Source: Chromatiaceae bacterium
Lineage (GTDB): Bacteria > Pseudomonadota > Gammaproteobacteria > SZUA-140
Length of the DNA stretch: 64,000 nucleotides
Direction of reading: 5' to 3'
Assembly: GCA_003232725.1 (NCBI GenBank)
Contig: QIJH01000218.1
Location: forward strand, 3,429-67,428
Shown here: piece after piece, positions 3,172-43,892 of the stretch
How the letters are laid out: every line of letters begins with the position of its first letter
Position numbering within the stretch: the stretch's first letter is position 1
The notes under the pieces: model-generated
Told to the model about the DNA's origin: nothing
What the model saw: the letters and a program-made list of their open reading frames with translations, nothing else
The model's database searches: none
Program-made: the position numbers and the translations under genes

Positions 3172-3248
<77 letters not shown>

Positions 3249-27752: not shown

Positions 27753-28721
27753 TTATTCCTTATCAGAGGTCGAGGGAGAGCGCTTTTTCGCCCGCGGATG
27801 CGCCTTGTCGTAGACCCTGGCAAGATGCTGAAAATCAAGATGGGTATAGATCTGCGTGGTGCTGATATCTGCATGGCCGAGCAGTTCCTGCACCGCACGC
27901 AGGTCTCCACTCGATTCCAGCATATGGCTGGCAAAGCTATGGCGTAACATATGAGGGTGCAGTGCCTCGGGCAAACCACGCTGTATCGCCCACTCACGCA
28001 AGCGCAGCTGAATCGCGCGATGCCCCAGCCGACGGCCCGCTTTACCCACAAAAAGCGCTGGATTATCAACATCAACCCATCCAGCGCGACATTGCAGCCA
28101 CTTATTCAGTGCTGCCAGCGCATATCGGCCAACCGGCACAATGCGGGTTTTACTGCCCTTACCAGTGATACGCACTACCGCATCGCGCCGGTCGATATCG
28201 TTAATATTTAATCCTGCCAGCTCCGCCAATCGCAGGCCTGACGAATAGATCAACTCCATCATGGTACGATCACGCAGCGCCAGCGGATCATTGTTATCGA
28301 CATTCAGTAACTGGCTCACCTGATCAACATCCAGCGTCTTCGGCAGCTTGCGCGCTGTTTTTGGCGCACTCACCCCCAACACCGGGTTGTTTTTCACCAC
28401 CCCTTCCCGCAGTAGATAATTGAAGAGTGTACGCAGTGCACAGAGCAGGCGCTGCAAACTGCGCCCACCAAGCCCACGACGGTGCAACTGCGCCACCACC
28501 CCACGCACATGATGTACATCTAGCCGCTGCCAACTATCGATTTCGTGCTCGTGGCAATAACAGACGACCTTTTGCAGATCACGGCGGTAGTTTTCCAACG
28601 TCAGCGGCGAAAGGCGGCGTTCGTTTTGTAGATAATCAAAAAAGGCCTCACCCCCATCAAACAGGGGATAGGCCTTTTGATCTGCAACCTTATCGGCCAT
28701 TAGGAGAGCATTAAATTTCAT
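27753..28721 (-). CDS. xerC: tyrosine recombinase XerC
   Basis: RLSPLTLENYRRDLQ... core-binding domain. Catalytic R..HxxR..Y region (LRHSFASHMLESSGDLRAVQELLGHADISTTQIYTHL). dapF-yigA-xerC synteny. The true start may be the Met at 28700. Confidence 0.88.
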   Translation of the reverse strand: MKFNALLMADKVADQKAYPLFDGGEAFFDYLQNERRLSPLTLENYRRDLQKVVCYCHEHEIDSWQRLDVHHVRGVVAQLHRRGLGGRSLQRLLCALRTLFNYLLREGVVKNNPVLGVSAPKTARKLPKTLDVDQVSQLLNVDNNDPLALRDRTMMELIYSSGLRLAELAGLNINDIDRRDAVVRITGKGSKTRIVPVGRYALAALNKWLQCRAGWVDVDNPALFVGKAGRRLGHRAIQLRLREWAIQRGLPEALHPHMLRHSFASHMLESSGDLRAVQELLGHADISTTQIYTHLDFQHLARVYDKAHPRAKKRSPSTSDKE

Positions 28722-29469
28722 CCCCGGCAGAGAGATGCGGGCGCAATTTACGAGTGATCAACGCACCCAGGTATTTAAGGAACACCGTGCCCACACCGGC
28801 ACAAAAACGCCCGGCATCTTTACTGCCAATCGCCAGCACACCCAGCGACACAGCCGCACTATCGCCTTTATCCCCCATCATCAAGGGCAGCTGTGCAACT
28901 GAACGAATGCCACTCTCTTGTGCGCTATCAAACAAGCAGGCCAATTCCGCATCGGTTAACACCCCGCAGGCAGGCTCGTCACCTTGGGTCAGATCTGCCA
29001 GTTTTTTAAACTGTTCGTCCTCCCGAGAGACAAACCTCACCTGCAGATCACCAATCAGGTCACTCTCCAGCGAAAGCGATGCCGGGTCAGCAAACAGGCA
29101 TAAGGAGACGCCATCGGCATTAAAGTCATCTTTAAGGCTCTGTTGGATCAGCGTTAACAGCGCCCCCAGCTCGTTGGTCTCCAGCAGCGCCAGCACCAGC
29201 TTTTGCAGCTTCACCATCAACACATCATTCACTCGTGCCACATCTATCAGTTCAGCCAACTGTTGTTGGTAACCTCCATTCTGCTCACGCAAAATGGCCA
29301 CCTGTCGCTCGATCAGCGAGACCGAAGCACCAGTGGTATGCGTCACCACCATTGTCGCCAACAGATCATCGCGGTCATTAAAAAACCCAGGGTTAGCGGC
29401 CAGATAATCCGCCACCGCTTTATCATCAATGGTTGGAATTTCGGCATTCTGATTTTGCTGCACACTCAT
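28711..29469 (-). CDS. DUF484 family protein (YigA-like, GAF-like fold)
   Basis: 252 aa. AVADYLAANPGFFNDRDDLLATMVVTHTTGASVSLIERQVAILREQN... conserved between dapF and xerC. Confidence 0.8.
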   Translation of the reverse strand: MSVQQNQNAEIPTIDDKAVADYLAANPGFFNDRDDLLATMVVTHTTGASVSLIERQVAILREQNGGYQQQLAELIDVARVNDVLMVKLQKLVLALLETNELGALLTLIQQSLKDDFNADGVSLCLFADPASLSLESDLIGDLQVRFVSREDEQFKKLADLTQGDEPACGVLTDAELACLFDSAQESGIRSVAQLPLMMGDKGDSAAVSLGVLAIGSKDAGRFCAGVGTVFLKYLGALITRKLRPHLSAGDEI

Positions 29470-30294
29470 AATTCGATTGTACCTTCATATACATGGGTAG
29501 CGGGACCTGTCATCCGCACCGAACTTTCATCACCAGCCCATCTTACCCAAAGCGAACCACCCGGTAAATCGACCAGCACCTCATCTTCCAATACCCCCCA
29601 ACGACGACCAACCGCTACCGCCGCACAGGCACCCGTTCCGCAAGCAAGCGTCTCACCCGCGCCGCGCTCAAACACCCGCAGGCGAATATGACGAGGGTCA
29701 ACCACCTCCATAAAACCCACATTAACACGCTCAGGGAATTTTACATGCGCCTCAATCTGCGGTCCAAGGCGCGCTACGGGCGCATCATCAATTGATGCCA
29801 CCTGCAATACCGCATGTGGATTACCCATCGACACCACACCGATCTCGTAAACGGCATCGTCAATATCAATCATATAGCGCGGCGCTTCCACCTCCGCAAC
29901 AAATGGGATTTCAATAGGCACAAACTGCGGCGCGCCCATATCAACTGTCACCTGACCATTGTTTTCCATCATTAGCTGAATAATACCGCCAGAGACCTCC
30001 ACCAATATCTGCGATTTTTTACTCAAATCATGCTCTCGCACATAACGGGCAAAACAGCGTGCACCGTTGCCACACTGCCCCACTTCACCGCCATCCGCAT
30101 TAAAGATGCGATAGCGAAAGTCCGCTTCTGCAGATTGAGCCGCTTCCAGCAGTAATAGCTGGTCACAACCCACCCCAATATGACGATCAGCAATAAAGCG
30201 GATCTGTGCCGCAGACAACGTAATTTCCTGATTGATCGCATCAATCACCACGAAATCGTTACCCAACCCATGCATTTTGCTAAATTTGATCACG
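29466..30294 (-). CDS. dapF: diaminopimelate epimerase DapF
   Basis: IKFSKMHGLGNDFVVIDAINQ...GNGARCFARYV (Cys73-like)...ACGTGACAAVAV (Cys217-like). Start set to GTG at 30294 (or ATG at 30276); the ORF track extends further upstream. Confidence 0.9.
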
Positions 30295-30424
30295 TTTTTC
30301 CGAGCACCTTTAATACTTTTGCCGAGTATACCCTGTAAGAGCAGCCTGTTTAAATCATTTGCTATAACACATTCCAATGTCAATAACGCTCACTCAATTC
30401 CAGCCAAACATCTATAATCCAGTC

Positions 30425-31260: not shown

Positions 31261-32094
31261 TCAAGTTTTCCAGTCAGGTACAACACCCTCGTCCATCATT
31301 TTGCTATTTTCGTTATAAATAAGCACTGTATCCGCGCTGATCATCTCAGGGTCAGCCACTGTCAACGCATATTCACCCACCAACGTACCATCGCCATGAA
31401 TCGTATTGGCTGGTGTATAGAGGGCATAGTTAAATGGAATTTGAAATGCGGTAAAGTTAAATTCATCTGCTGAGATTCGCTTTCCAATCACAATATAGCC
31501 ACCGCACTTTTCGGAGGTTGGAATATGCAGATGCGGAAAATCATGCGTCTCGATAAAAATTCCACCACCGCCATGAAGCTTCATCAGAAACTCTTTTTTA
31601 TAATTCTCTTTGTAGTCATACTTCATCAATACGATATCACATTTAGCGGTGGTGATAGTCAATCCATGGTTGTTTTCAATTAACTCAAGGCCGTAGTACT
31701 TCACATTTTCCGGTGTGGCCAACACTGTCGGAATATTAAATCCATCCGGAACCAGCAACGCGCCCAGGCCACTAAACACATTAGCACTAGAGCCGGCAAT
31801 TACCTTAATCCCTTTTTCTTTCACCTCTTTTTCGGTGTACCAGGTTGCCGCAACATTCACCATTTTCGGTATCGTATCATCCCGCTCAATACCTCTTTTG
31901 GAAGCCACATCAATCTTCCAACAAGGAACACCCTTCTCAATCAATGTCATACCGGCATCAGTCGTCATTGCAGTGACGCTTTTATCGGGCTTGCCATCTT
32001 TCACCGCATAACACGCAATATCAACACTTTTTAGTATCTCGTCAGCTTTCTCTGTTCTTGTAAAATAGACGGGGAAATCAAACGCTTCACTCAT
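31261..32094 (-). CDS. hypothetical protein (278 aa), AT-rich gene
   Basis: Starts MSEAFDFPVYFTRTEKADEILK.... Contains LHGGGGIFIETHDFPHLHIP. No family recognised. Composition visibly more AT-rich than neighbours. Confidence 0.5.
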   Translation of the reverse strand: MSEAFDFPVYFTRTEKADEILKSVDIACYAVKDGKPDKSVTAMTTDAGMTLIEKGVPCWKIDVASKRGIERDDTIPKMVNVAATWYTEKEVKEKGIKVIAGSSANVFSGLGALLVPDGFNIPTVLATPENVKYYGLELIENNHGLTITTAKCDIVLMKYDYKENYKKEFLMKLHGGGGIFIETHDFPHLHIPTSEKCGGYIVIGKRISADEFNFTAFQIPFNYALYTPANTIHGDGTLVGEYALTVADPEMISADTVLIYNENSKMMDEGVVPDWKT

Positions 32095-32216
32095 ACAGCC
32101 TTTCCTCCTTAATACAGGTTTTCGGAATATTATACAAATCATATATATCTCACTGTGCTATGATCTCTGCCACGGGTAAATCAGTCATATTCTAATATTT
32201 TTGCAAATGGTTCTAA

Positions 32217-33173
32217 TTGCAGTCAAGACGAAAAATGCGTGACCAAAATGAAATGGAAATTGATGATTCCGTCTATAAAACACTCCTGGAATCGACAAAT
32301 GCAATTCCATGGAAGATCGACTGGCAGAGCAAAAAGTTTACTTATATCGGCCCACAAATTGAATCCTTACTCGGGTGGTCAACATCAAGCTGGCACAGCG
32401 TTAACGACTGGGTTGAACGCATGCATCCTGACAACAGAGAATCTGTGGTTAATTTTTGCATTGCTCAATCACAGGCAGGCAACGACCATGAAGTGGATTA
32501 CCGCGCCCGAACAAAGGATGGCGGCTACATCTGGATTCGAGATGTCGTTCATGTCATTCGTAAAAATAACGAAGTTGAATCAATCATCGGCTTCATGTTT
32601 GATATTAGCGAACGAAAGAAAATTGAAGAGAAACTCATTCACCTACAAAAAGAACTCGAAGAACTCTCTTATAAAGACGCCCTCACCAACATCGCAAACC
32701 GCCGCATGTTCGATTCCATTCTCAAACGAGAATGGGCCAGCGCACAACGAAACCAGCAACCGATCGCACTCATCCTGCTAGATATCGACTTCTTTAAAGA
32801 GTACAACGATCACTACGGGCACATCATGGGTGACGACTGCCTGAAACAGGTCGCCAGGATATTAAGTAACGTCGCAACCAGGCCGCGAGACTTTGTGGCG
32901 CGCTTTGGCGGCGGGGAATTTGTGCTCGTTCTCTCTGATACGGATGAGGCATCAGCAATCAAAATCGCTGAAGAATGCCGCCGCGAAATCACTCAACATG
33001 CCATTCCTCACGCACAGTCAACTATCGGCCAAATACTCACCATTAGTGCAGGTGCGGGTGCCATCACACCATTAAAAAACGCTTGTCAAAAATATTTCAT
33101 CAGGCAAATCGACACCCTGCTCTATAAAGCGAAACTTCGCGGCAGGAATTGCGTTATCCACAAAGCATCATGA
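32217..33173 (+). CDS. PAS-domain protein with degenerate GGDEF domain (RFGGGEF)
   Basis: PAS fold (LLESTNAIPWKIDWQSKKFTYIGPQIESLLGW...DGGYIWIRDVV) then GGDEF domain (LTNIANRRMFDSIL...LILLDIDFFKEYNDHYGHIMGDDCLKQVA...ARFGGGEFVLVL). The signature is GGGEF rather than GG[DE]EF. Confidence 0.8.
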   Translation: MQSRRKMRDQNEMEIDDSVYKTLLESTNAIPWKIDWQSKKFTYIGPQIESLLGWSTSSWHSVNDWVERMHPDNRESVVNFCIAQSQAGNDHEVDYRARTKDGGYIWIRDVVHVIRKNNEVESIIGFMFDISERKKIEEKLIHLQKELEELSYKDALTNIANRRMFDSILKREWASAQRNQQPIALILLDIDFFKEYNDHYGHIMGDDCLKQVARILSNVATRPRDFVARFGGGEFVLVLSDTDEASAIKIAEECRREITQHAIPHAQSTIGQILTISAGAGAITPLKNACQKYFIRQIDTLLYKAKLRGRNCVIHKAS

Positions 33174-33496: not shown

Positions 33497-34510
33497 ATGA
33501 AATACCCAATTGCTGGCATCGTTTTACTGGCATCTACGCCAGCACTCGCGTTAGACGCCATCCCCGACAGCTTTCCAACACCAATGGACAACCCAATCAG
33601 CAACGCCAAAGTAGAACTCGGCAAGCAGCTCTTTTTTGATCCGCGCCTTTCGATTGATGGCACCGTATCCTGCAACTCATGCCACAACGTGATGGCGAGC
33701 GGCACCGATAGCCGCCCTACTTCTGTTGGTGTTAACGGCCAACGCGGCGGACGTAATGCACCGACCGTGTGGAATGCTGCATTCCTTAGCACCCAGTTCT
33801 GGGATGGCCGCGCCGCGACACTGGAAGAGCAGGCAAAAGGACCACCTTTAAACCCAATCGAGATGGGCATGCCAAATGCACAGGCGGTGGTTGATCGGCT
33901 CGAAAGCATTCCCGGTTACAAGGCACAATTTAATGCCATCTTCGGCGCGGTCTCTTACGACAACATGGCAAAAGCAATTGCCAGCTATGAGCGCACACTG
34001 ATTACCATTAACAGCCCGTTTGATCGTCACATGAAAGGTGATAAAACAGCAATGTCTGACAAAGCGATCAAAGGCATGAAGCGTTTCAATACCATTGGCT
34101 GCTCTGGCTGTCACAACGGCGTTAACTTTGCGGGGCCTGCACTTGCCACCGGTACTGGTTTCTTCCAGAAATTTCCACTGTTTAACAACCCGCTTATCGC
34201 TAAATACAACTTGGCAAAAGACAAAGGGCGCTATGAAGTAACCCAGGACAACGCCGACATCAACACCTGGCGTGTGCCATCACTACGTAACATCGCCACC
34301 ACCGCACCTTACTTTCACAACGGCGCAGTTAAAACCCTTGAGGAAGCGGTACATGTAATGGCAACTAGCCAGCTTGATAAAAAATTAAGTGATGCTGAAA
34401 TCAGCGAAATCGTTGCTTTCCTGGAATCCCTCACGGGTGAGTTTCCAGCCCAGACTATGCCTAGACTTCCTGGCATTACGGGTAGCAGCCTCGTAGGTTC
34501 AATCAAGTAA
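33497..34510 (+). CDS. ccp: di-haem cytochrome c peroxidase (CcpA/MauG family)
   Basis: Signal peptide; two CxxCH motifs (CNSCH, CSGCH); ...FFDPRLS...GRNAPTVWNAAF...FWDGRA...TAPYFHNGAV conserved CCP residues. Confidence 0.9.
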   Translation: MKYPIAGIVLLASTPALALDAIPDSFPTPMDNPISNAKVELGKQLFFDPRLSIDGTVSCNSCHNVMASGTDSRPTSVGVNGQRGGRNAPTVWNAAFLSTQFWDGRAATLEEQAKGPPLNPIEMGMPNAQAVVDRLESIPGYKAQFNAIFGAVSYDNMAKAIASYERTLITINSPFDRHMKGDKTAMSDKAIKGMKRFNTIGCSGCHNGVNFAGPALATGTGFFQKFPLFNNPLIAKYNLAKDKGRYEVTQDNADINTWRVPSLRNIATTAPYFHNGAVKTLEEAVHVMATSQLDKKLSDAEISEIVAFLESLTGEFPAQTMPRLPGITGSSLVGSIK

Positions 34511-34536: not shown

Positions 34537-34562
34537 AGCCGACCTTCATGGTCGGCTTTTTC
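34537..34562 (+). terminator. Rho-independent terminator after ccp
   Basis: agccgacc-ttcat-ggtcggct hairpin followed by TTTTTC. Confidence 0.7.
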
Positions 34563-35056: not shown

Positions 35057-35797
35057 GTGAATAAAAACCAGACAACACAGCAATCAGCCACGGATGAAAT
35101 CAATGATTTTATCGAACCTTGCTTTCTCAATAGCAATCGTTGGATAAACACACCAGTCAATAACAACATCGCAAAAATAGCACATTACCTGTCACATAAA
35201 ATTTCCAAAATACCACTGGATTTGACAAGCCATGCGCAACGGATTTCTCTTTACCGCCACCAAGATGATGCTGAAAGTACATATGCAGCACTATTAGATC
35301 TTTTCCTTGTACTTGGCAACAAAGGCCTGCCATTACGCAAGCGCCTACTACGGCAAGCAGCATCTGTCATCAGTGCAGAAAACTATGGTTTTTTATCAAG
35401 CACGCTGCCAACGGCATTGGTCATCACATGCAATACACCACTACCACACCTTTCCGCACTAAGTCTTGGTAGAACCAGAGAAAAAGAGATCATACGGAAA
35501 ACCGATGACGAGCAGTCAAAAAAAAAGGAAGCACCACTATTGATCGTGCGCGACCTACTTAATTCAGGACAAATATCACAGGCACAGTCAATTCTGGAAC
35601 TCGCACTGCTAGCCGCACCGGATAACAATGATCTTAGCAACGAACTACTGCAGATCTATCATCATACTCACGATAGAAGCGGCTGCATTCAAATGCTTAA
35701 AAAATTGTCATCAGCTGCATTAGCAGGCCGAGAGAAATGGGCAGAACTGATTATCACACTCGACCAGGACAGCACGGAGCGCTCACTCAGTGCATAA
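35057..35797 (+). CDS. hypothetical protein, helical/TPR-like C-terminus (first gene of candidate GTPase operon)
   Basis: 246 aa ORF with GTG start and no clear SD. C-terminal ...AQSILELALLAAPDNNDLSNELLQIYHHT... resembles a TPR/FimV-C-like helical hairpin. No family assigned. Confidence 0.4.
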   Translation: MNKNQTTQQSATDEINDFIEPCFLNSNRWINTPVNNNIAKIAHYLSHKISKIPLDLTSHAQRISLYRHQDDAESTYAALLDLFLVLGNKGLPLRKRLLRQAASVISAENYGFLSSTLPTALVITCNTPLPHLSALSLGRTREKEIIRKTDDEQSKKKEAPLLIVRDLLNSGQISQAQSILELALLAAPDNNDLSNELLQIYHHTHDRSGCIQMLKKLSSAALAGREKWAELIITLDQDSTERSLSA

Positions 35798-36680
35798 ACA
35801 GAAAACAACCAACCCTATTAGAGTGACCACACTCGGTCTCGATGAGCGCTCACAAGAGGTGCTGAGAATGGCTTTTTCAAGCGTCGCAAAGGGCGAGTGC
35901 GTTTTATCCGATACTGCCTCAGCAGATGTTGGTCTCTGTAATATGGATAGCCACAACGCAAATACATTATGGAGTAAAAATAAAACACACTATCCCGAGC
36001 GCCCTATGGTTGTGATTTCAGTCAAAAATCCACAACTTGAAAATTGCATGTATGTAGCAAAACCGATTAACATCACCATGCTTGTCGATGCAATCAAGGA
36101 TGCCTTTAGTAGCAGCGCCATGCAGCATTCAGTAGCTCATGCAGTCAATGGAATGCATGCCAGTACACAGGAGCTTCATCCGCTACCCCAGCAACCAGAG
36201 AAACACATTCAAGAGACATCCATGGGTTCTCCTCTAACACCTGAGGAACAATGGAATGATGAAGGCCACTCGAGTATCAACTACTACTCTCCAGCAGATT
36301 ACCTGCAAGAAGAGCTACAAAACTCTGCCACACAGGCAAGTGAGAGAAATCTATCCGCACAATACTCAGTCAAATTGAACGACACCTGGCTACACATCAC
36401 TATAGATCCAATTCATAATAAAGTGGTCTCTGAAATCAGCGATCAAATACTTGAGTCTCTGTGTACAACACCACGCTACTGTATTGAAACCAAATCAAAA
36501 TTTCTTAGCAAAAACAGATCCCACTTTGATGTCTACCGAGGAGACAAACCCTATCATGAATGCACCATCGCTCAATTCATTTGGAAGGTAGCGCTCTGGA
36601 CATCTGCTGGAAGACTATCAAAAGAGATGAGCCCATCAACACTGGCCGAATTTAACACGCCTGACACGCTCAAAAAATGA
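35790..36680 (+). CDS. receiver (REC)-like domain protein with unknown C-terminal domain
   Basis: N-terminal ~110 aa have CheY-like topology: IRVTTLGLDERSQEVLRMAF...ADVGLCNMDSHNA (Asp at the phospho-acceptor position)...PMVVISVKNP...YVAKPINITMLVDAIKDAF (KP motif). The acidic pocket is partly degenerate. Overlaps the previous gene by 8 nt. Confidence 0.45.
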   Translation: MHKQKTTNPIRVTTLGLDERSQEVLRMAFSSVAKGECVLSDTASADVGLCNMDSHNANTLWSKNKTHYPERPMVVISVKNPQLENCMYVAKPINITMLVDAIKDAFSSSAMQHSVAHAVNGMHASTQELHPLPQQPEKHIQETSMGSPLTPEEQWNDEGHSSINYYSPADYLQEELQNSATQASERNLSAQYSVKLNDTWLHITIDPIHNKVVSEISDQILESLCTTPRYCIETKSKFLSKNRSHFDVYRGDKPYHECTIAQFIWKVALWTSAGRLSKEMSPSTLAEFNTPDTLKK

Positions 36681-36942
36681 TATCAGGATAGCAGCGCTGC
36701 TCTCCGAACAGCCAGCTGCACCAGCCCTTATTTCCAAGGTACTTGGGATACCAATATCTCAAGTCTTTTCTTTTTACGCGGCAGCACATGCACTCAATTT
36801 AGCCATGCCAGTCGTGAATGTGACAAAAAAACCAGCGTTTAATATTCAACAAAAAAGCAAACATCATTCATTATTTAGCAAAATACTCGAAAAATTTGCT
36901 GGTTAACACTAAACCACCTACCCATAAAGACACCCTTCGATC

Positions 36943-37491
36943 ATGCCTGGAAACAATCATAAAATAATATTCACTGGCCCTGTGGGCGCAGGAAAGACAG
37001 CAGCAATTAGCGCCATTAGTGATATTGCCGTTTTAAAAACGGATGAAAATGCACAGGACATGACCAAGAAACGCAAGCAGACAACAACCGTAGCGCTAGA
37101 TTATGGGCTATTAAAACTAGGGGAAGGGGAAGGGGAACGCATTCACCTCTATGGCACACCCGGCCAGGAACGTTTCGACTTCATGTGGGACATATTAACC
37201 AATGGTGGCCTTGGCCTAATCCTACTACTTGACAACTCGCGCTCAACCCCTTTTAAAGACATGAGTTTTTTTCTTAACGCATTTCGTGATTTTATTTGCG
37301 ATAACAAAATGGTCATTGGGGTTACGCACATGGAATACAACGAAACATCAAAAATAGAGTCGTATCATCAACAGTTACATAAACATGGCATCAAAGCACC
37401 CATACTAGAAATTGATGCGCGAGAAAAAAACGATGTCGAAACGCTAGTCAAAACACTTCTTTACTCACTTGACCCATGGCTGGGGCAGTAA
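36943..37491 (+). CDS. small Ras-like GTPase, MglA-like
   Basis: 182 aa. P-loop KIIFTGPVGAGKTAAIS; switch I Thr (TTTVALDYG); switch II HLYGTPGQERF, like MglA's TVPGQ variant of DxxGQ. Size and organisation like MglA/CvnD-type GTPases. No clear canonical NKxD. Confidence 0.7.
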   Translation: MPGNNHKIIFTGPVGAGKTAAISAISDIAVLKTDENAQDMTKKRKQTTTVALDYGLLKLGEGEGERIHLYGTPGQERFDFMWDILTNGGLGLILLLDNSRSTPFKDMSFFLNAFRDFICDNKMVIGVTHMEYNETSKIESYHQQLHKHGIKAPILEIDAREKNDVETLVKTLLYSLDPWLGQ

Positions 37492-38177
37492 TGAGTCAAT
37501 ACGAACTGATCGATACAAGGTTTGTCTTACCATCACCCGCAGGCACATATTACGCCATATCAAACCATCAAGAAGAGCGCTCCAGAGGGCTGCTACTTGC
37601 TTTAATGACACAAGCAAACAGTCAAAGAATATCCACAGAGACGCTTTCGATTTGGCTAGACGATGACAACATTGAAACGTCATTGGCACTGCTTCACAAG
37701 ATTCAACAATTAGGCTGGCTTAGACCAGATGATGAACAATCATCGGCCCCGACCGGGGCACTTGAAGAAATAATACCACCGCTACTGGCAACATTATGCA
37801 ACACAGAAAAAACACTACTTGCCGATCACCAGGGCTTTACACTCGCCGCTCACGGATTTACTCACGAAGCAGCCGAAGAGCTATCGGCTCTCAGTGCAGA
37901 CCTCATCGCTCTGAGATTACGGCACGGAAGTTTGCTCACTAAAAACCTTAAACTTAATACGCAAGCCATCGGCCTTATTGATGCCGCAGGCAATAGCCAG
38001 CTAGGGTTCTGGCCACTGCATATTGGCAAGCACTGCTTTACATTGGTAATGAGTGGCATACCGCAATTTAATCAAACCAGTTTTACCAATTTAATTTGGC
38101 TACTAACGACTCGTTATGGATCAAATGACAATGCTGCCAATTTGTCAATTCACGAAATATTTTACACAGATAAATAG
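37491..38177 (+). CDS. hypothetical protein, possible tandem roadblock/longin-like partner (translationally coupled to GTPase)
   Basis: ATG overlaps the GTPase stop (TAATG). 228 aa. Second half (LLATLCNTEKTLLADHQGFTLAAHGF...AIGLIDAAGNSQLGFWPLHIGKHCFTLVMSG) has a roadblock-like alternation. Confidence 0.45.
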   Translation: MSQYELIDTRFVLPSPAGTYYAISNHQEERSRGLLLALMTQANSQRISTETLSIWLDDDNIETSLALLHKIQQLGWLRPDDEQSSAPTGALEEIIPPLLATLCNTEKTLLADHQGFTLAAHGFTHEAAEELSALSADLIALRLRHGSLLTKNLKLNTQAIGLIDAAGNSQLGFWPLHIGKHCFTLVMSGIPQFNQTSFTNLIWLLTTRYGSNDNAANLSIHEIFYTDK

Positions 38178-38239
38178 ACTGAGCGACAACTTATTCAATA
38201 TCATCTACCACAAAAATTTTGAAACAAGGAGTCAATATA

Positions 38240-38602
38240 ATGCGAGCTGACATTTTAAATTCTATTCTATCTGAGTTGAACGGCACTTCAGCTGAAATAG
38301 AAGCATCAGCCATCTTATCGACAGATGGCCTCATGATGGCATCAATGCTGCCTGCTGGAATGGATGAAGATCGAGTGGGTGCAATGGCTGCGGCCATGCT
38401 CTCGCTCGGCGATAGAACATCTGAAGAACTCGCACGCGGTGGACTTGAACAAGTACTGATAAAAGGAGAAAAAGGCTACGTTTTGATGACGCATGCGGGT
38501 GATGAATCAGTACTATCAGTACTTGCCAAACCAAGCGCGCGCCTTGGGCTAATATTTTTAGATGTAAAACGTGCTGCAGAATCAATTGAGAAGCTGGTTT
38601 AA
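38240..38602 (+). CDS. Roadblock/LC7 domain protein (MglB-like)
   Basis: MRADILNSILSELNGTSAEIEASAILSTDGLMMASMLPAGMDEDRVGAMAAAMLSLGDRTSEELARGGLEQVLIKGEKGYVLMTHAGDESVLSVLAKPSARLGLIFLDVKRAAE is a textbook Roadblock/LC7 signature. AAGGAG RBS 8 nt upstream. Confidence 0.78.
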   Translation: MRADILNSILSELNGTSAEIEASAILSTDGLMMASMLPAGMDEDRVGAMAAAMLSLGDRTSEELARGGLEQVLIKGEKGYVLMTHAGDESVLSVLAKPSARLGLIFLDVKRAAESIEKLV

Positions 38603-38626
38603 ACCAATCACGACAGGAAAACTCAC

Positions 38627-39097
38627 ATGAAAGACATGATGCCTGACAATATTTCCGGCGAGTACCAAGAACATCTATTCAGCTACCATGATGGTACTCA
38701 GCGAAAAGCCCTTTTCACCAACATCGAAACACAACTACCAGAAGGCCGCCTGATTGTTTCTCGCACAAATACCGATGGCATCATTATTGATGTAAACCAG
38801 CCATTTATTGAAATGTCCGCTTATCATAAAGATGAGTTAATCGGCCAACCTCATTATATTCTTCGCCATCCAGATATGCCTGCCGCCGCATTTAGCGATC
38901 TCTGGAAAATGGTTCAACAGCGAAATAAATGGCATGGATACGTCAAAAATCTTCGCAAAGACGGTGGCTTTTATTGGGTATATGCGACCGTTATCGCAAA
39001 CATTCGGAAGGGTGACATCACTGGCTTTACATCTGTTCGCCGCCGTGCCTCGCGCGCTAAAATTAATGAAGCCGAAATTCTTTATCAAACTTTATAA
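38627..39097 (+). CDS. stand-alone Aer-type (FAD-binding) PAS domain protein
   Basis: RLIVSRTNTDGIIIDVNQPFIEMSAYHKDELIGQPHYILRHPDMPAAAFSDLWKMVQQRNKWHGYVKNLRKDGGFYWVYATVIANIRKGDITGFTSVRRRAS closely parallels the Aer N-terminal PAS (GQPHN.VRHPDMP.AAF.D.W...G.PW.G.VKNR.K.G..YWV.A.V.P). No transmembrane or output domain. Confidence 0.8.
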   Translation: MKDMMPDNISGEYQEHLFSYHDGTQRKALFTNIETQLPEGRLIVSRTNTDGIIIDVNQPFIEMSAYHKDELIGQPHYILRHPDMPAAAFSDLWKMVQQRNKWHGYVKNLRKDGGFYWVYATVIANIRKGDITGFTSVRRRASRAKINEAEILYQTL

Positions 39098-39111
39098 CAG
39101 GATCATCAACC

Positions 39112-39858
39112 ATGACCCACAACTTCACCGTCAGTCCAGACTTTAATCCAGGCCATATATCTGGTTGGTACATCTTCAATACATGGCTTCAACGCACCAT
39201 CAATGAAGAGCTCCACCTGGAACTCTACAATAGCGCTAGCGAACAACGAAAAGCGATCGCTGATGACCGGGTAGATTTAATTTATGCCAACCCTTATGAC
39301 GCGACAGCACTGGTAAGAGACAAGGGGTTTTTCCCTGTTGCACGTGCTGACAACAAAACAGACGAGGCCATCATCGCTGTCAATCATGAAAGCCCAATCC
39401 TCAATGTTGAACAACTCACAGATGGCACCAGAATTTCCAGCACCGATGACCCGGACGTACGCATGATGTGCATGATCATGCTTGAGCCTGCAGGGTTAAA
39501 TAAAAGTAACACCTCTACCACACAACGTGATGCTTACATTTTGATTGCCAAAGATCTTTTAAAAAACGACGCCGACGTTGGTTTCTTTCTCGAAGAGACA
39601 TACAACGAACTCTCAGACATGACAAAAAAACAATTAAGACCTATTGTGCACAGCCAAATTCATGTCATCCACCATCTACTGCTTGTCGGTCCTAAATTAG
39701 CACACAAAAAAGATGACATACAATCATCACTCCTTTCAATGGCTGATGACTCAAAAGGAGTCGGCGTATTAAAAAACCTGAACTTCGAACGCTGGGTAGC
39801 GGTTGAGCAGGAAGAAGCCGAATTCATGATTGACTTAATGGACACATTAGCCGAATAA
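39112..39858 (+). CDS. PhnD/SsuA-like (phosphonate-binding family) periplasmic-binding-fold protein lacking a signal peptide
   Basis: 248 aa. DLIYANPYDATALVRDKGFFPVARAD...AIIAV pattern of Phosphonate-bd/PBP type 2. N-terminus MTHNFTVSPDFNPGH... is not a signal peptide. Confidence 0.6.
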   Translation: MTHNFTVSPDFNPGHISGWYIFNTWLQRTINEELHLELYNSASEQRKAIADDRVDLIYANPYDATALVRDKGFFPVARADNKTDEAIIAVNHESPILNVEQLTDGTRISSTDDPDVRMMCMIMLEPAGLNKSNTSTTQRDAYILIAKDLLKNDADVGFFLEETYNELSDMTKKQLRPIVHSQIHVIHHLLLVGPKLAHKKDDIQSSLLSMADDSKGVGVLKNLNFERWVAVEQEEAEFMIDLMDTLAE

Positions 39859-39880: not shown

Positions 39881-41008
39881 CTATTGCTTAGATGCCTCTT
39901 TTTTAGAGTCGCGCAACCGCTGAAGTTTTTCAAGTATACGTTCCGCCCGACCAATATGCTCTAGCGCCTGCTCGTTGTCGGGTGCCAGTGCTAGCGCATT
40001 TTCCCAGGTACCTATTGCCTTCATATACTGTCCCTCTCCGTAATACTCGACACCCAGGGCAATACTCTCTTTCACCTGTTTATCCAGAAGAAAACTCAAC
40101 TGCTGTGCAAGCTCAATCTCACTCTCATTCAAATTACCTAACAACTTCAACCTGACAACATAATCTAATGCCCTAGTCAGCTCATTATTATTGACAGCCT
40201 TAAGCAAAGACACATTGAGAATTTTTTGCATCTTCCGTCTACTTTCAATCACAATTTGTTGCTGTCTGCGCTCATTTTCCACCTGGGACTGTAACTTTTC
40301 ATTCTCGATTTCTTGCTGTTGTTTCGCCAATAGCAGCTGACTCTCCACGACTGTTTGCTTAAGCTCGCCTATCATCGGCACTGGATTAAGCTGCCAGGCA
40401 AGGCTAAGCAACTCTTCCGCATGGAGGAAATCATCCTGTTCCAAGGCTGCTCGTCCATGTTCAGCAAGCAATTTAGCAACTTTCTTTGATTTATCTTTAT
40501 CTCTTTTCCAGCGGCCCTCTTTTAGCCAACTACCTGGGGTAATCAACGCCAACTCTTCCTGAACACTAATCGTATTACTCAACCACTCCGCTTGCATCAC
40601 TAACAAGTCCAATTCCAGTGCCGCAACCCGAATATTCTGTTTAAAATGCAGCGCCTGAAATGCTGAGTTAATCTTTTCACTATCTGGAATATTATTTAAT
40701 GCGGTTTGGTAGTATCGCTTGGCACGATACCACTCTCCTGCCTTCTCAAGCGCCCTGCCCTCCTCCAGTGTCTGCTGCTCATATATAACTGCCTGCTTAT
40801 CAATACCAGCGATTAACGCATTCACACTTGAATAGTCAGCGTGCGACTCAGGCACATGAGAAAGCACCACTTGCGCTTGTGCATACCGATCCCCCTCGAC
40901 AAGAGAGTCCACCTTTTCTAATACATTAGACGAACGCGCATCCATATACGCACAACCCTGTACAAATATCACCAACAAAATGAGAAAGGCTAATTTCACA
41001 TTTTTCAT
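39881..41008 (-). CDS. TPR-repeat lipoprotein
   Basis: Signal peptide with lipobox (LILLVIFVQGC). Multiple TPR-like repeats (AQ..LS...Y..AL, GEWYRAKRYYQTALNN, GQYMKAIGTWENALALAPDN). 4-nt overlap with the upstream cyclase gene. Confidence 0.65.
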   Translation of the reverse strand: MKNVKLAFLILLVIFVQGCAYMDARSSNVLEKVDSLVEGDRYAQAQVVLSHVPESHADYSSVNALIAGIDKQAVIYEQQTLEEGRALEKAGEWYRAKRYYQTALNNIPDSEKINSAFQALHFKQNIRVAALELDLLVMQAEWLSNTISVQEELALITPGSWLKEGRWKRDKDKSKKVAKLLAEHGRAALEQDDFLHAEELLSLAWQLNPVPMIGELKQTVVESQLLLAKQQQEIENEKLQSQVENERRQQQIVIESRRKMQKILNVSLLKAVNNNELTRALDYVVRLKLLGNLNESEIELAQQLSFLLDKQVKESIALGVEYYGEGQYMKAIGTWENALALAPDNEQALEHIGRAERILEKLQRLRDSKKEASKQ

Positions 41009-42477
41009 GTCGATACGGATACGTCGCCAGTATTCACAACCGTCGATATTGCATCATCGATCATCGCCTGCTGTTTTTCATCAACACCGCTCACATGGTA
41101 AGTCACCAGCGCTTCTTTTTTTCCTTTTAGTGAAATTTTCTTAAAGCGAGTACTAACGATACCCTGAGATTGCAGTGTAACATTCAGTTCATCACTAATT
41201 AGAATTTCGCCAGCATCCGCCGCAGAGGCAAGGCGTGATGCAGTATTAACCGCATCACCAACGACCGTATAGTCCATTCGCTCGGCAGCGCCCATATTAC
41301 CAGCCAGCATCATGCCACTATTAATACCAATTCTAAAACGAACTTGCGTCAAATTATCATTCGCCCTCTGGCGGTTAACTATTTTAACTAGCTTTTGAAT
41401 CGTAATCGCACATGCAGCCGCATGAAAGCTATGCTTGGCATCATCCTCCGGCACACCAAAGACAAGCATCGCACAATCGCCTATGTATTTATCAATATGC
41501 CCACCATAGCAATGTGCTGCCTGCGCAATAATACTAAAGTACTCATTCAGAAGACTATTCACCTGCTCCGGATGTAGCTCTTCCGAAAGCCGCGTAAAAC
41601 CAACGATATCTGCAAACAAAACACTCGCCTCAACATGATGCCCTCCCAACTTCACCTGGTTCAGGTTAGACAATACCGCCTTAGCTACTTTCGGTGAAAC
41701 GTAACGTGAAAATGTCTGCTCCACTTGCTCTTTACGTAACAGCCCTTCCGTCATTTCATTCATCGACTGCATCAGTGAACCCAACTCATCTTTGCGCTGA
41801 TCATTAAGGCGAACATGATAATCACCAGCCGAAATTGCACGGCCAGCATTAATCAATTGATGTATAGGGCGAGTTAAACGCTTACCCAATATAAAAGATG
41901 CTATAAAACCCAGAATCACTAACAACAATGTCGCGCCACCTACCGTGCGAATGGTCTCTTGCTGTGCCAACGTTCTTAAGCGTTGATCAAAAGTAATGAG
42001 CACATAACCTGTCGTCACATCCTTAAAAAACACCGGCTTGAAAAATGAAACCATATCAAGCGGCTCAGGAGCAACGCTATTTTCCTGCCATTCCAGTTTA
42101 ATTACACGCCCTAAGGCAGTGGCAATACGGTGGTCGTCCGGCACTGCACCCTTTTTCACCACCAGCTCTTTGTTCTCATTGTAAAGAGCTGCGCCAAGAA
42201 TCCCAGCTTCACCTGCAAGACTGTTCACCACAATCTCAAGATTAAGGTGATCATTGGCTAATAAGGGTTCACGGGAAAAGCCGGCCATCAACCTTAAAAC
42301 CGTATTTCCCGACTCACTCACCTGCTGCTCAAGAATATTACTTTGGTTGTGGACAATGAACAGCCCCAACAAACTCATCCCGCAACTAATCAATAAAGTA
42401 AAGACTAATGAGAGTTTATAGGCAATAGGGAAGTATGCCGGCAAAAATGCTGTCAGATTTTGGCGTAACTTTTTCAT
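41005..42477 (-). CDS. membrane sensor adenylate/guanylate cyclase (2TM periplasmic sensor - HAMP - class III cyclase)
   Basis: Two TM segments flanking a ~150 aa periplasmic region, HAMP (ILGKRLTRPIHQLINAGRAISAGDYHVRL), CHD cyclase domain (VLFADIVGFTRLSEELHPEQVNSLLNEYF...IGDCAMLVFGVP...RIGINSGMMLAGNMGAAERMDYTVVGDAVNTASRL). Confidence 0.85.
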   Translation of the reverse strand: MKKLRQNLTAFLPAYFPIAYKLSLVFTLLISCGMSLLGLFIVHNQSNILEQQVSESGNTVLRLMAGFSREPLLANDHLNLEIVVNSLAGEAGILGAALYNENKELVVKKGAVPDDHRIATALGRVIKLEWQENSVAPEPLDMVSFFKPVFFKDVTTGYVLITFDQRLRTLAQQETIRTVGGATLLLVILGFIASFILGKRLTRPIHQLINAGRAISAGDYHVRLNDQRKDELGSLMQSMNEMTEGLLRKEQVEQTFSRYVSPKVAKAVLSNLNQVKLGGHHVEASVLFADIVGFTRLSEELHPEQVNSLLNEYFSIIAQAAHCYGGHIDKYIGDCAMLVFGVPEDDAKHSFHAAACAITIQKLVKIVNRQRANDNLTQVRFRIGINSGMMLAGNMGAAERMDYTVVGDAVNTASRLASAADAGEILISDELNVTLQSQGIVSTRFKKISLKGKKEALVTYHVSGVDEKQQAMIDDAISTVVNTGDVSVST

Positions 42478-42903: not shown

Positions 42904-43176
42904 ATGACAATGATATATACCAATGACCTGCTCGACGAACTTAATATCCTGCTGCAATTCAATCTAGCAACGACTCAGGAAGGGATTAAAATCCACCGTT
43001 CAGCGGGTACCACTACCATCGATGCCACCACACGCTTATTTAATAAAGGGCTCATCACTCAAACCGATGGGGGCTATCTCACTGATTTAGGACATATTGC
43101 TGCCGAACATGCTCAGAGCAGTTACACCATCCTGACACCCGCCCATGAATCATCACTAAAGCCAGCCTCAATGTAA
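42904..43176 (+). CDS. hypothetical protein (90 aa)
   Basis: Strong RBS GGAGGAG 4 nt upstream of ATG. MTMIYTNDLLDELNILLQFNLATTQEGIKIHRSAG.... No Cys, no C-terminal GG. Family unknown. Confidence 0.5.
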   Translation: MTMIYTNDLLDELNILLQFNLATTQEGIKIHRSAGTTTIDATTRLFNKGLITQTDGGYLTDLGHIAAEHAQSSYTILTPAHESSLKPASM

Positions 43177-43286
43177 ACGATACATCAACTATATAAAATA
43201 GCGAAAATGGTGCGATAAGGCCATTCAAGATGTGGCTGCTTTCATCTTAATAAACCATCCTATGAGCGCAATAAGGGACTAAAACG

Positions 43287-43892
43287 ATGAAAATCCAGGT
43301 GTTAACCAAAAAATTGCATGAACTCAAAGAAAAACAGCAGCAGATCGAAACGGCCTGGCGTAAAACAGGCAATCGTGAATTTCTTGAATTCATGGTGGAA
43401 TTACTCCCAAAAGCACTCAACGCAGAACGCTGCAGTATTTTCATCAACAATCCTGACAATAATAACGTCTGGATTCAATGTGGCACAGGGCTTCAGGAAA
43501 AACAGATCTCTGTACCCAAAGATAGCTCCATAGTCGGCAAAGTGATCGCCAGCGGTGAGATTATCATGGAAAACAACCTCGCCAATCAAATAGGTGCGCA
43601 CGACACAATCGCCTTTAAAACCGGTTTTACCTCTAAAAGCACCATCTGCGTGCCCGTATTAGGGGCAAAAACACAGCAGGTAGCGGGCGCCATTCAGGTG
43701 CTGAATAAACTCAATGCCGAATCTGCATTTACCCAGAACGACATTGAAATTGTCAAAAAACTAGCCCACCACCTCCAGGTCAATATCGAGAATATCTACC
43801 AACGCCAGGAGATGGCCAATATTGCTGCAGAGATCGGCAAGAAAGTGAGTCTCATCGAAGCCAAGCTAAAATCACTTGGGCATACAGAATAA
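43287..43892 (+). CDS. stand-alone GAF domain protein
   Basis: 201 aa. ...AERCSIFINNPDNNNVWIQCGTGL...SIVGKVIASGEIIMENNLANQ...TKSTICVPVLGAKTQQVAGAIQVLNK fits the GAF fold. Short coiled coil at both ends. Confidence 0.7.
   Translation: MKIQVLTKKLHELKEKQQQIETAWRKTGNREFLEFMVELLPKALNAERCSIFINNPDNNNVWIQCGTGLQEKQISVPKDSSIVGKVIASGEIIMENNLANQIGAHDTIAFKTGFTSKSTICVPVLGAKTQQVAGAIQVLNKLNAESAFTQNDIEIVKKLAHHLQVNIENIYQRQEMANIAAEIGKKVSLIEAKLKSLGHTE

Follow-up and report, generated by a model that had tools for sequence, protein, structure and literature searches.

A probable seven-gene Group 3 MglA-family GTPase switch module with stand-alone sensor genes in a gammaproteobacterial contig

A cassette of seven genes, referred to here as g1 to g7, lies on the forward strand of a 64,000-nt stretch of contig QIJH01000218.1 from a Chromatiaceae bacterium. 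The whole of this stretch is called the window, and positions are window coordinates unless a locus number (L) precedes them. The cassette is centred on a small GTPase of the MglA family and its features are collected in Table 1. The original prediction, made from the window sequence, had read it as seven co-oriented genes of one operon around a Ras-like GTPase. All seven open reading frames (ORFs) were confirmed and the same gene set recurs in relatives, so this part of the prediction stands.

Table 1. Genes and features of the cassette and its immediate context
Feature	Position	Strand	Description
g1	35057-35797	+	246 aa, function unassigned, C-terminus weakly TPR-like; conserved first gene of the cassette
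g2, 5' part	35790-36680	+	296-aa ORF with REC-fold N-terminal domain, variable linker and conserved middle domain; truncated by a frameshift
g2, 3' part	36631-36906	+	Out of frame; most conserved C-terminal domain of the family (WPNLTRL...RIAALL...); TAA at 36904-36906
g3	36943-37491	+	Small Ras-superfamily GTPase, 182 aa, MglA family (Group 3 type)
g4	37491-38177	+	228 aa, winged-helix-like at ~1-85 and Roadblock/LC7 at ~90-210; first of two MglB-like partners
g5	38240-38602	+	120-aa Roadblock/LC7 protein (MglB-like)
g6	38627-39097	+	156-aa stand-alone Aer-type PAS protein, presumed FAD-binding redox sensor
g7	39112-39858	+	248-aa cytoplasmic ligand-binding protein of PhnD fold (periplasmic-binding-protein type)
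Terminator-like hairpin	34537-34557	+	3' of a cytochrome c peroxidase gene; 8-pair stem with 6 G-C pairs, then a T-run
TPR lipoprotein-like gene	39881-41008	-	Pfam TPR_1/TPR_2; context, outside the conserved cassette
HAMP class III adenylate cyclase	41005-42477	-	HAMP 2.1e-13, Guanylate_cyc 7e-33; context, outside the conserved cassette

At the first junction g1 and g2 overlap by 8 nt, GTGCATAA, with a GTG start at 35790 and the TAA of g1 at 35795-35797, and not by the ATGA originally read there. The TAATG overlap predicted between g3 and g4 (37491) is present. The gap between g4 and g5 is 62 nt from the ATG start, as in homologues, or 41 nt from an upstream TTG. A spacer of roughly 500 nt separates g1 from the terminator-like hairpin. 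As a marker of the upstream boundary of the cassette the hairpin is suggestive only, and a promoter should lie in the spacer; promoter and terminator scans of the window gave counts no higher than those in shuffled sequence. Downstream, the TPR lipoprotein-like and cyclase genes form a unit (39881-42477, minus strand) that is convergent with the cassette and ends 22 nt past g7.

Conservation of the gene set was followed in two search directions. The forward scan used one genome per species and found a GTPase relative in at least 597 genomes, of which the best 80 were kept. The cassette proteins were counted by tblastn against 83 non-redundant genome loci, with a flank of at least 4 kb downstream (71 loci), at least 2.6 kb upstream (74 loci) or both (62 loci) needed for a locus to be scored. 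Upstream of the GTPase gene, g1 was present in 67/74 and g2 in 73/74 loci. Downstream of it, g4 and the Roadblock gene g5 were each found in 67/71, the PAS gene g6 in 51/71 and the PhnD-like gene g7 in 52/71. g6 and g7 occurred together in 51/71 loci, which is 51 of the 52 that have g7. All seven genes were found in 45 of the 62 loci with both flanks, and the order g2-g3-g4-g5 is shared by the window and nearly all of the 83 loci. The hosts span Methylococcales, Thiotrichales, Chromatiales, Halothiobacillaceae, Competibacteraceae and symbionts of the Candidatus Thiodiazotropha type, and also take in Sphaerotilus and other Burkholderiales as well as Rhodocyclaceae. Loci of Neisseriales, Thermithiobacillus and Leucothrix carry the g2-g3-g4-g5 core only, with or without g1. 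All-against-all clustering of the ORFs of the genome loci showed no other broadly conserved gene.

The reverse search was a metagenome scan seeded with an alignment of the PhnD-like protein, and its best 80 loci were analysed. The PAS gene immediately precedes the PhnD-like gene in 69/69 cases, and also upstream there is a Roadblock gene in 56/59 and the GTPase gene in 40/43; two of the three GTPase exceptions have a permuted order with the gene set kept. Nearly every locus found in this way contains the cassette, so the PAS and PhnD-like genes, as a pair, are a dedicated component of the module. The same set in the same order is found in dozens of genomes of different orders, an arrangement far beyond chance. 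A search for neighbourhood conservation, proposed with the original prediction, thus finds the set conserved across orders whichever end it starts from. The full set is retained in the order g1-g4-g5-g6-g7-g2-g3 at L077 (Methylophaga), L102 and L109.

The GTPase g3 matches Pfam ATP_bind_1 (8.7e-12) and Ras (9.5e-7). Its G1 motif GPVGAGKT (residues 12-19) fits GxxxxGK[ST] and is invariant in the family alignment. The G2 motif TTTV (residues 47-50) and the G3 motif YGTPGQ (residues 70-75) are both conserved. G4 reads GVTHMEY (T-H-M-E; the family consensus is GVTQMD) and has no NKxD lysine, and G5, EIDAREK, contains DAR. These Pfam matches and the conserved G1 and G3 bear out the Ras-like GTPase with GPVGAGKT and GTPGQ that had been predicted. 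Solved Rab, Ras and MglA chains match g3 weakly (MglA E about 4e-4). Homologues of g3 fall into more than 4000 clusters, and Methylomonas orthologues, 65% identical to the window GTPase, stand in the same seven-gene order. By analogy with its relatives, g3 would be a GTPase that switches between GTP and GDP states. L043 and L084 have a second GTPase gene beside the cassette, about 2.1-2.5 kb 5' of the main one and divergently oriented, whose product is a paralogue with 39-55% identity.

The GTPase gene is followed by its two MglB-like partners. g5 matches Pfam Robl_LC7 (PF03259) at 2.3e-17 and passes the curated threshold with 62.9 bits against a cut-off of 23 bits, and is the textbook Roadblock/LC7 protein it was taken for. 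It has a conserved Asp-Gly pair (STDG) and is the best conserved protein of the cassette, with typically 73-83% identity across orders of Beta- and Gammaproteobacteria (L003-L087); the GTPase reaches 57-66%, and g1 and g2 reach 22-49%. Such high conservation is unusual for a presumed GTPase-activating protein (GAP). g4 had been called a tandem-roadblock protein. A Roadblock/LC7 domain (PF03259) is present only in its C-terminal half, and the N-terminal half is a small, helical, winged-helix-like domain. Kinship to DUF742/CvnC was sought in the g4 N-terminus (40 members) and the g2 C-terminus (15 members), with no Pfam match. Comparisons by hhalign among the middle and C-terminal domains of g2, both domains of g4, the two halves of g1 and the Roadblock family all gave a probability of 9% or less, even for the g4 C-terminus against Roadblock, which makes this comparison uninformative. 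At the other end of the cassette, g1 matches Pfam TPR_19 with E 8.5e-4 and 20 bits, under the 25-bit cut-off and over the last 55 residues only, and has no NCBIfam or PADLOC family match. The predicted TPR-like upstream gene is thus present, but its TPR character is sub-threshold.

The remaining two downstream genes encode candidate sensors. g6 matches Pfam PAS_3 (1.4e-12), is 41% identical to residues 8-133 of E. coli Aer with RHPDMP kept (pairwise E 2e-34), and matches PDB 8dik, the Aer PAS, with E 3.6e-30. This identity and the structure match agree with the stand-alone Aer-type PAS of the original prediction. By analogy with Aer, g6 probably binds flavin adenine dinucleotide (FAD) and would sense the redox or energy state. 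Identification of g6 as an Aer receptor was rejected, as it is a PAS domain only and has no membrane anchor, HAMP or MCP domain.

g7 matches Phosphonate-bd (PF12974) with E 1.8e-33 over profile positions 1-241 of 242, starting from its residue 5. No signal peptide was found in g7, and 40 of 54 family members have the same N-terminus. Its prediction as a cytoplasmic PhnD-like domain is upheld by this full-length match and the missing signal peptide. No genes of an ATP-binding cassette (ABC) transporter (phnC, phnE) were found beside g7 or within the cassette in any surveyed locus. A phosphonate transporter component was rejected on both grounds, the lack of an export signal and of phnC/phnE. 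A comparison of g7 with PDB sequences gave no sequence-level match to a solved structure.

The sensor part of the cassette varies between lineages. A stand-alone protoglobin gene (PF11563, 3.3e-23; L027:7192-7755) lies inside the cassette in 10 loci (L010, L027, L034, L037, L042, L059, L071, L076, L081 and L086), either between g4 and the Roadblock gene or after the Roadblock gene, and in some of these the PAS and PhnD-like genes are absent. An extra PhnD-like paralogue, 23-29% identical to g7, is found between g4 and the Roadblock gene at L017, L025, L044 and L050, which are Halothiobacillus-type loci, and at L023, which is from an unclassified Pseudomonadota metagenome-assembled genome.

Gene 2 is interrupted in the window. 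In DNA alignments with its close relatives L004, L007 and L008, the window is short of 17 nt, CACTTCGATACAACTAA-like, between 36637 and 36638 that each of the three possesses. Read in the other frame, the 3' part of g2 gives a 91-aa translation with 92% identity to the C-terminus (residues 289-377 of 377) of the homologue P0242. In close relatives g2 is 377 aa long and ends 36-37 nt before the GTPase gene, and g2 homologues in general have 377-389 aa. The 17-nt deletion, together with an out-of-frame C-terminus that matches full-length P0242, shows that g2 is frameshifted. The 262-bp gap predicted upstream of the GTPase gene is therefore not intergenic but the out-of-frame 3' end of g2, which leaves a real spacer of 36 nt between g2 and g3.

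The module may be crippled in this contig, or the contig may have an assembly error. One alternative is that the cassette is decaying here and, with g2 frameshifted, has ceased to work as a module: the contig-specific deletion takes out the best conserved region of the g2 protein family, and the deposited contig encodes the identical 296-aa shortened product. The out-of-frame part, however, has kept its identity to the intact homologue and is free of further lesions, which leaves three possibilities: a very recent event, a variant present in a minority, or an error in the assembly. In addition, no lesion affects the other six genes, whose identity to their counterparts in close relatives is 82-100%. 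Decay of the cassette in this genome is thus possible but doubtful.

The N-terminus of g2 has a receiver fold, with an Asp at the end of beta3, a Ser/Thr at the end of beta4 and a Lys after beta5. The receiver Asp and the Lys-Pro are conserved in the family, as the original prediction of a receiver-fold N-terminus with Asp and KP would have it. The Response_reg search suggested there gave the opposite result, since the PF00072 sequence model is not passed and neither Pfam nor NCBIfam has a match in g2 or 14 homologues. The C-terminal segment of g2 shows a helix-turn-helix-like pattern, and no Pfam helix-turn-helix match was found at the C-terminus among 15 family members.

Prokaryotic MglA homologues were divided into five groups by Wuichet and Søgaard-Andersen in 2014 (PMC4316618). 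In Groups 2-5 a Thr replaces the arginine finger of G2 and G3 is GTPGQ, and in Groups 2 and 3 there is no G4 lysine and G5 is DAR (PMC4316618). Group 3 is almost exclusive to beta- and gamma-Proteobacteria, and its neighbouring "DUF" was predicted by Phyre2 to have a REC-like N-terminus, a variable linker and a C-terminus like a winged helix-turn-helix (PMC4316618). The order "DUF>MglA>MglB>MglB>" is listed in Table S2 of that study for Methylomonas methanica MC09, Methylomicrobium alcaliphilum, Acidithiobacillus, Neisseria meningitidis and others (PMC4316618). Examples of Group 3 are the N. meningitidis NMB0476 locus, the Methylomonas methanica Metme_1347 locus (PMC4316618) and the Snodgrassella mgl locus (PMC11112851). 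By motifs, neighbourhood, taxonomy and orthology, and not by a tree, g2-g3-g4-g5 of the window would be a Group 3 MglA system, and g2 is its DUF. The GTPase orthologues of Methylomonas, Methylobacter, Aquitalea and Stenoxybacter, whose genera or families are entered as Group 3 in Table S2 (PMC4316618), are 57-66% identical to that of the window. The locus as a whole is probably an extended, seven-gene Group 3 MglA-family GTPase switch module with stand-alone sensors of its own. This reading is carried by domain identities, GTPase motifs, folds and a gene set that proved conserved in the forward as well as the reverse search.

In the mechanism proposed for the module, GTP hydrolysis by g3, the part played by a GAP, the binding of FAD, the direction of signalling and the output are predictions. 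g3 would cycle between GTP-bound and GDP-bound forms. The Roadblock proteins g4 and g5 may form a dimeric platform on g3 that sets this cycle, acting as a GAP in the manner of MglB or MfpD. MglB is described as the cognate GAP of MglA (PMC9481161); for the related GTPase MfpB, MfpD is described as the GAP (PMC9769811) and MfpC as the guanine nucleotide exchange factor (GEF; PMC11343762). CvnD9, which has the same atypical type of G4 and G5, is reported to hydrolyse GTP (cited in PMC4316618). g4 may add exchange or anchoring, and its winged-helix-like head could by analogy play the GEF part of CvnC/MfpC, to which no homology was found.

The inputs would be the Aer-type PAS (FAD, redox or energy) with its obligate PhnD-fold partner and, in some lineages, the protoglobin also or instead. 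A redox or oxygen input is favoured by the Aer-type PAS and by the protoglobin gene that the 10 loci described above have in this region of the operon. As g6 and g7 have no output domains, they must act by protein-protein contact. g1 would serve as a TPR-like adaptor. g2, with its REC fold, variable linker and highly conserved helical C-terminal domain, would couple the switch to the output, for which the context favours cell-pole or surface behaviour, or transcription.

Several points weigh against the reading as a switch module with its own sensors. First, G4 of g3 lacks the guanine-specifying lysine, and the nucleotide specificity is assumed. The sole experimental work found on a Group 3 locus is that on Snodgrassella mglB (PMC11112851), and the placement in Group 3 is made from motifs, neighbourhood, taxonomy and orthology. 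Second, the PAS and PhnD-like genes are absent from the loci of Neisseriales, Thermithiobacillus and Leucothrix and are hence accessory, not core. Third, g2 itself is disrupted in the window. Its C-terminal domain was modelled with low confidence, at a predicted local distance difference test score (pLDDT) of 30-50, and a profile of this domain found nothing among PDB sequences even at E 10, leaving the published winged-helix prediction unconfirmed. Fourth, the cassette has no histidine kinase. For this reason the REC-like domain may be a pseudo-receiver; alternatively g2 may be the target of an unlinked kinase. Lastly, the FimV, bactofilin and cyclase neighbours described below are each confined to particular lineages.

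At 15 loci, spread over two classes, the gene directly 3' of the cassette encodes a polar landmark protein of the FimV/HubP family (TIGR03505, TIGR03504). Such loci (L063:7192-8613 and L066:7981-9168 among them) belong to Thiothrix, Thiolinea and Leucothrix and, independently, to Burkholderiales and Rhodocyclaceae. A bactofilin gene (PF04519, 1.4e-23; L013:4874-5236, minus strand) and a gene for a small coiled-coil membrane protein are divergent upstream of g1 at L013 and 8 other Thiothrix-type loci. In nine Methylococcales loci a PF06189 5'-nucleotidase gene lies 3' of the cassette (L033:7946-8842 is one of them). In Methylomonas (L003:10877-14317) the cassette is followed on its 3' side by a His_Phos_1 phosphatase gene and then by a class I adenylate cyclase gene.

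A different use of the same parts would be a purely transcriptional switch, in which g2 is an atypical response regulator that binds DNA and is gated by the GTPase and the roadblocks, with no role in polarity or motility. This was suggested by Wuichet and Søgaard-Andersen, whose Phyre2 prediction for the Group 3 DUF is REC-like and winged-helix-turn-helix-like (PMC4316618). The REC fold of g2 is confirmed, and the helix-turn-helix-like pattern lies in its best conserved part. Support for a DNA-binding domain did not come from the models or searches, as the pLDDT of this part is below 50 and neither a Pfam helix-turn-helix match among the 15 members nor a PDB profile match was obtained. Moreover, no conserved target genes were found beside the cassette in the surveyed loci, and the repeated presence of FimV-like and bactofilin genes as neighbours suggests a different role. 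A purely transcriptional role is conceivable but on balance unlikely.

The window cassette lies in a segment of lower G+C content (0.42-0.48 over 31-44 kb, against about 0.49-0.55 in the flanks). The flanks are chromosomal: ubiB, ubiE, hslU, xerC-DUF484-dapF and trmO upstream, and moeB-like, lnt, corC, phoH, miaB, mazG and slt downstream. No sign of an accessory or mobile segment was found in the window, whose flanks are housekeeping genes without mobility genes. As the surroundings are ordinary chromosomal genes, the label accessory is unsupported. The original prediction of an AT-richer accessory segment is thus right in base composition and unsupported in the word accessory, given these flanks and the synteny in close relatives. 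At L004, L007 and L008 synteny extends from the cassette through the cyclase, DUF5669 and GAF genes downstream of it, and the closest named relatives of the window are uncultured Thiotrichaceae.

Other genes of this region can be noted. The tyrosine recombinase gene within 27753-30383 (minus strand) is the housekeeping XerC in its usual dapF-DUF484-xerC cluster and no marker of a mobile element. A 293-aa ORF at 31261-32142 (minus strand), with no Pfam or PADLOC match, adjoins a PAS-GGDEF diguanylate cyclase gene (32217-33173, plus strand), and these two with the cytochrome c peroxidase gene (33497-34510) form a lower-GC signalling neighbourhood 5' of the cassette. Beyond the convergent cyclase unit, 42904-43892 carries the DUF5669 gene and a stand-alone GAF-domain gene. 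Rfam and ARAGORN detected a single RNA gene in the window, a tRNA-Met (CAT) at 3172-3248 (plus strand).

The nearby cyclase raises the possibility that the redox-informed switch controls cyclic AMP (cAMP) synthesis. The HAMP class III cyclase is convergent with the cassette both in the window and in close relatives, the class I CyaA of Methylomonas is co-oriented with the cassette, and the PAS of Aer signals through a HAMP domain. Among the 83 loci, however, cyclase neighbours occur only in the window clade (class III; L004-L008) and in Methylomonas (class I), and the window cyclase belongs to a separate convergent unit with a TPR lipoprotein partner of its own. The coupling to cyclic nucleotides originally proposed is thus right in that a convergent HAMP cyclase is present but, with two lineages only, it is not a general feature. 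A cAMP link is possible locally, not generally, and control of cAMP synthesis as the purpose of the switch is improbable.

The probability that the genes stand together by chance or form an anti-phage defence island is negligible: the region is indeed AT-richer than its flanks, but the set is kept across orders in both search directions, even in permuted loci, so that the forward and reverse counts effectively refute chance juxtaposition, and a defence system is rejected by the housekeeping flanks without mobility genes and the lack of PADLOC matches in the window.

The preferred reading is thus the sensor-bearing Group 3 switch module, and its output can be discussed with more reserve. In Snodgrassella, mutants in mglB of the Group 3 locus differ in their colony edge and in how they colonise the gut (PMC11112851). 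This phenotype and the FimV and bactofilin neighbours lean to a pole or surface output, whereas the published winged-helix prediction leans to transcription. The cassette hosts are gradient-dwelling sulfur oxidisers, methanotrophs and sheathed Betaproteobacteria. A speculative and rather unlikely extension is a self-contained bacterial G-protein pathway that senses oxygen or redox state and needs neither histidine kinase nor chemoreceptor, in which the FAD-PAS and periplasmic-binding-protein-fold sensors, or the protoglobin, would act on the roadblocks that regulate the GTPase, and the GTPase, through g2 and FimV-type pole markers, would set polarity, reversal or surface behaviour.

Group 3 MglA is present in at least about 600 species genomes, which include Neisseria, Stenotrophomonas and Xanthomonas pathogens, methanotrophs and sulfur oxidisers. 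The PAS and PhnD-fold pair that a large subgroup carries, with a protoglobin also or instead in some lineages, provides a testable hypothesis for its input, namely a small ligand in addition to redox state or oxygen. The conserved residues of phospho-acceptor type in g2 and the recurrent FimV-like neighbour are leads to its output. Tractable hosts of the full cassette are Methylotuvimicrobium buryatense 5G, Methylomonas, Thiothrix and Sphaerotilus natans.

The original prediction considered the cassette an undescribed gammaproteobacterial system. This does not hold for the core, which was catalogued in 2014 as Group 3 MglA; for g1, g6, g7 and the domain added to g4 it holds as far as the searches reach. 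A literature search on locus tags and on combinations of roadblock, PAS and phosphonate found no work on the extended cassette. The seven-gene, sensor-bearing form is an under-described variant of a catalogued, functionally uncharacterised system.

Known systems resemble the cassette in different parts. PhnD (PF12974) is matched by g7 over its full length, but g7 has no signal peptide or ABC genes and is obligately paired with a PAS gene. The likeness of g6 to Aer covers the whole PAS domain; without the anchor, HAMP and MCP domains, g6 cannot signal to CheA as Aer does.

The actinobacterial conservons (CvnA-D; the Mfp operon; Group 2) share with the cassette GTPGQ, the lysine-less G4, DAR and the ATP_bind_1 match. 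They likewise have a Roadblock GAP (MfpD) and a small helical partner (CvnC/MfpC, the GEF) in a one-operon "bacterial G-protein system". Unlike them, the window cassette has no CvnA-type kinase and no DUF742 match, and its G4 is T-x-M-D/E, not NxFD. The REC-like protein, the PAS, the PhnD-like protein and g1 are absent from conservons.

The Group 1 module of Myxococcus xanthus (MglA, MglB, MglC, RomR/RomX, RomY) also combines a Ras-like GTPase with Roadblock partners. It has in common with the cassette a REC protein with a variable linker (compare RomR), TPR partners of MglA (SgmX) and a link to cell poles and type IV pili. The parallel to this polarity module drawn in the original prediction fails at the GTPase itself, which has Thr at the position of the G2 arginine finger and GTPGQ instead of TVPGQ, and is not of Group 1. 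In addition, the window partners lie in one operon, no equivalents of RomX or RomY were identified, and stand-alone sensors take the place of the Frz chemosensory input.

The published Group 3 MglA systems differ from the window in two respects. The available part of their description covers DUF, MglA and MglB only and does not mention g1, the PAS, the PhnD-fold protein, protoglobin or the g4 extension (PMC4316618), and the DUF gene is frameshifted in the window. In other respects they agree: the GTPase has the G2 Thr, GTPGQ, the lysine-less G4 and DAR, a REC-like DUF gene precedes it, two MglB/Roadblock genes follow it, and the taxonomic range is equal.

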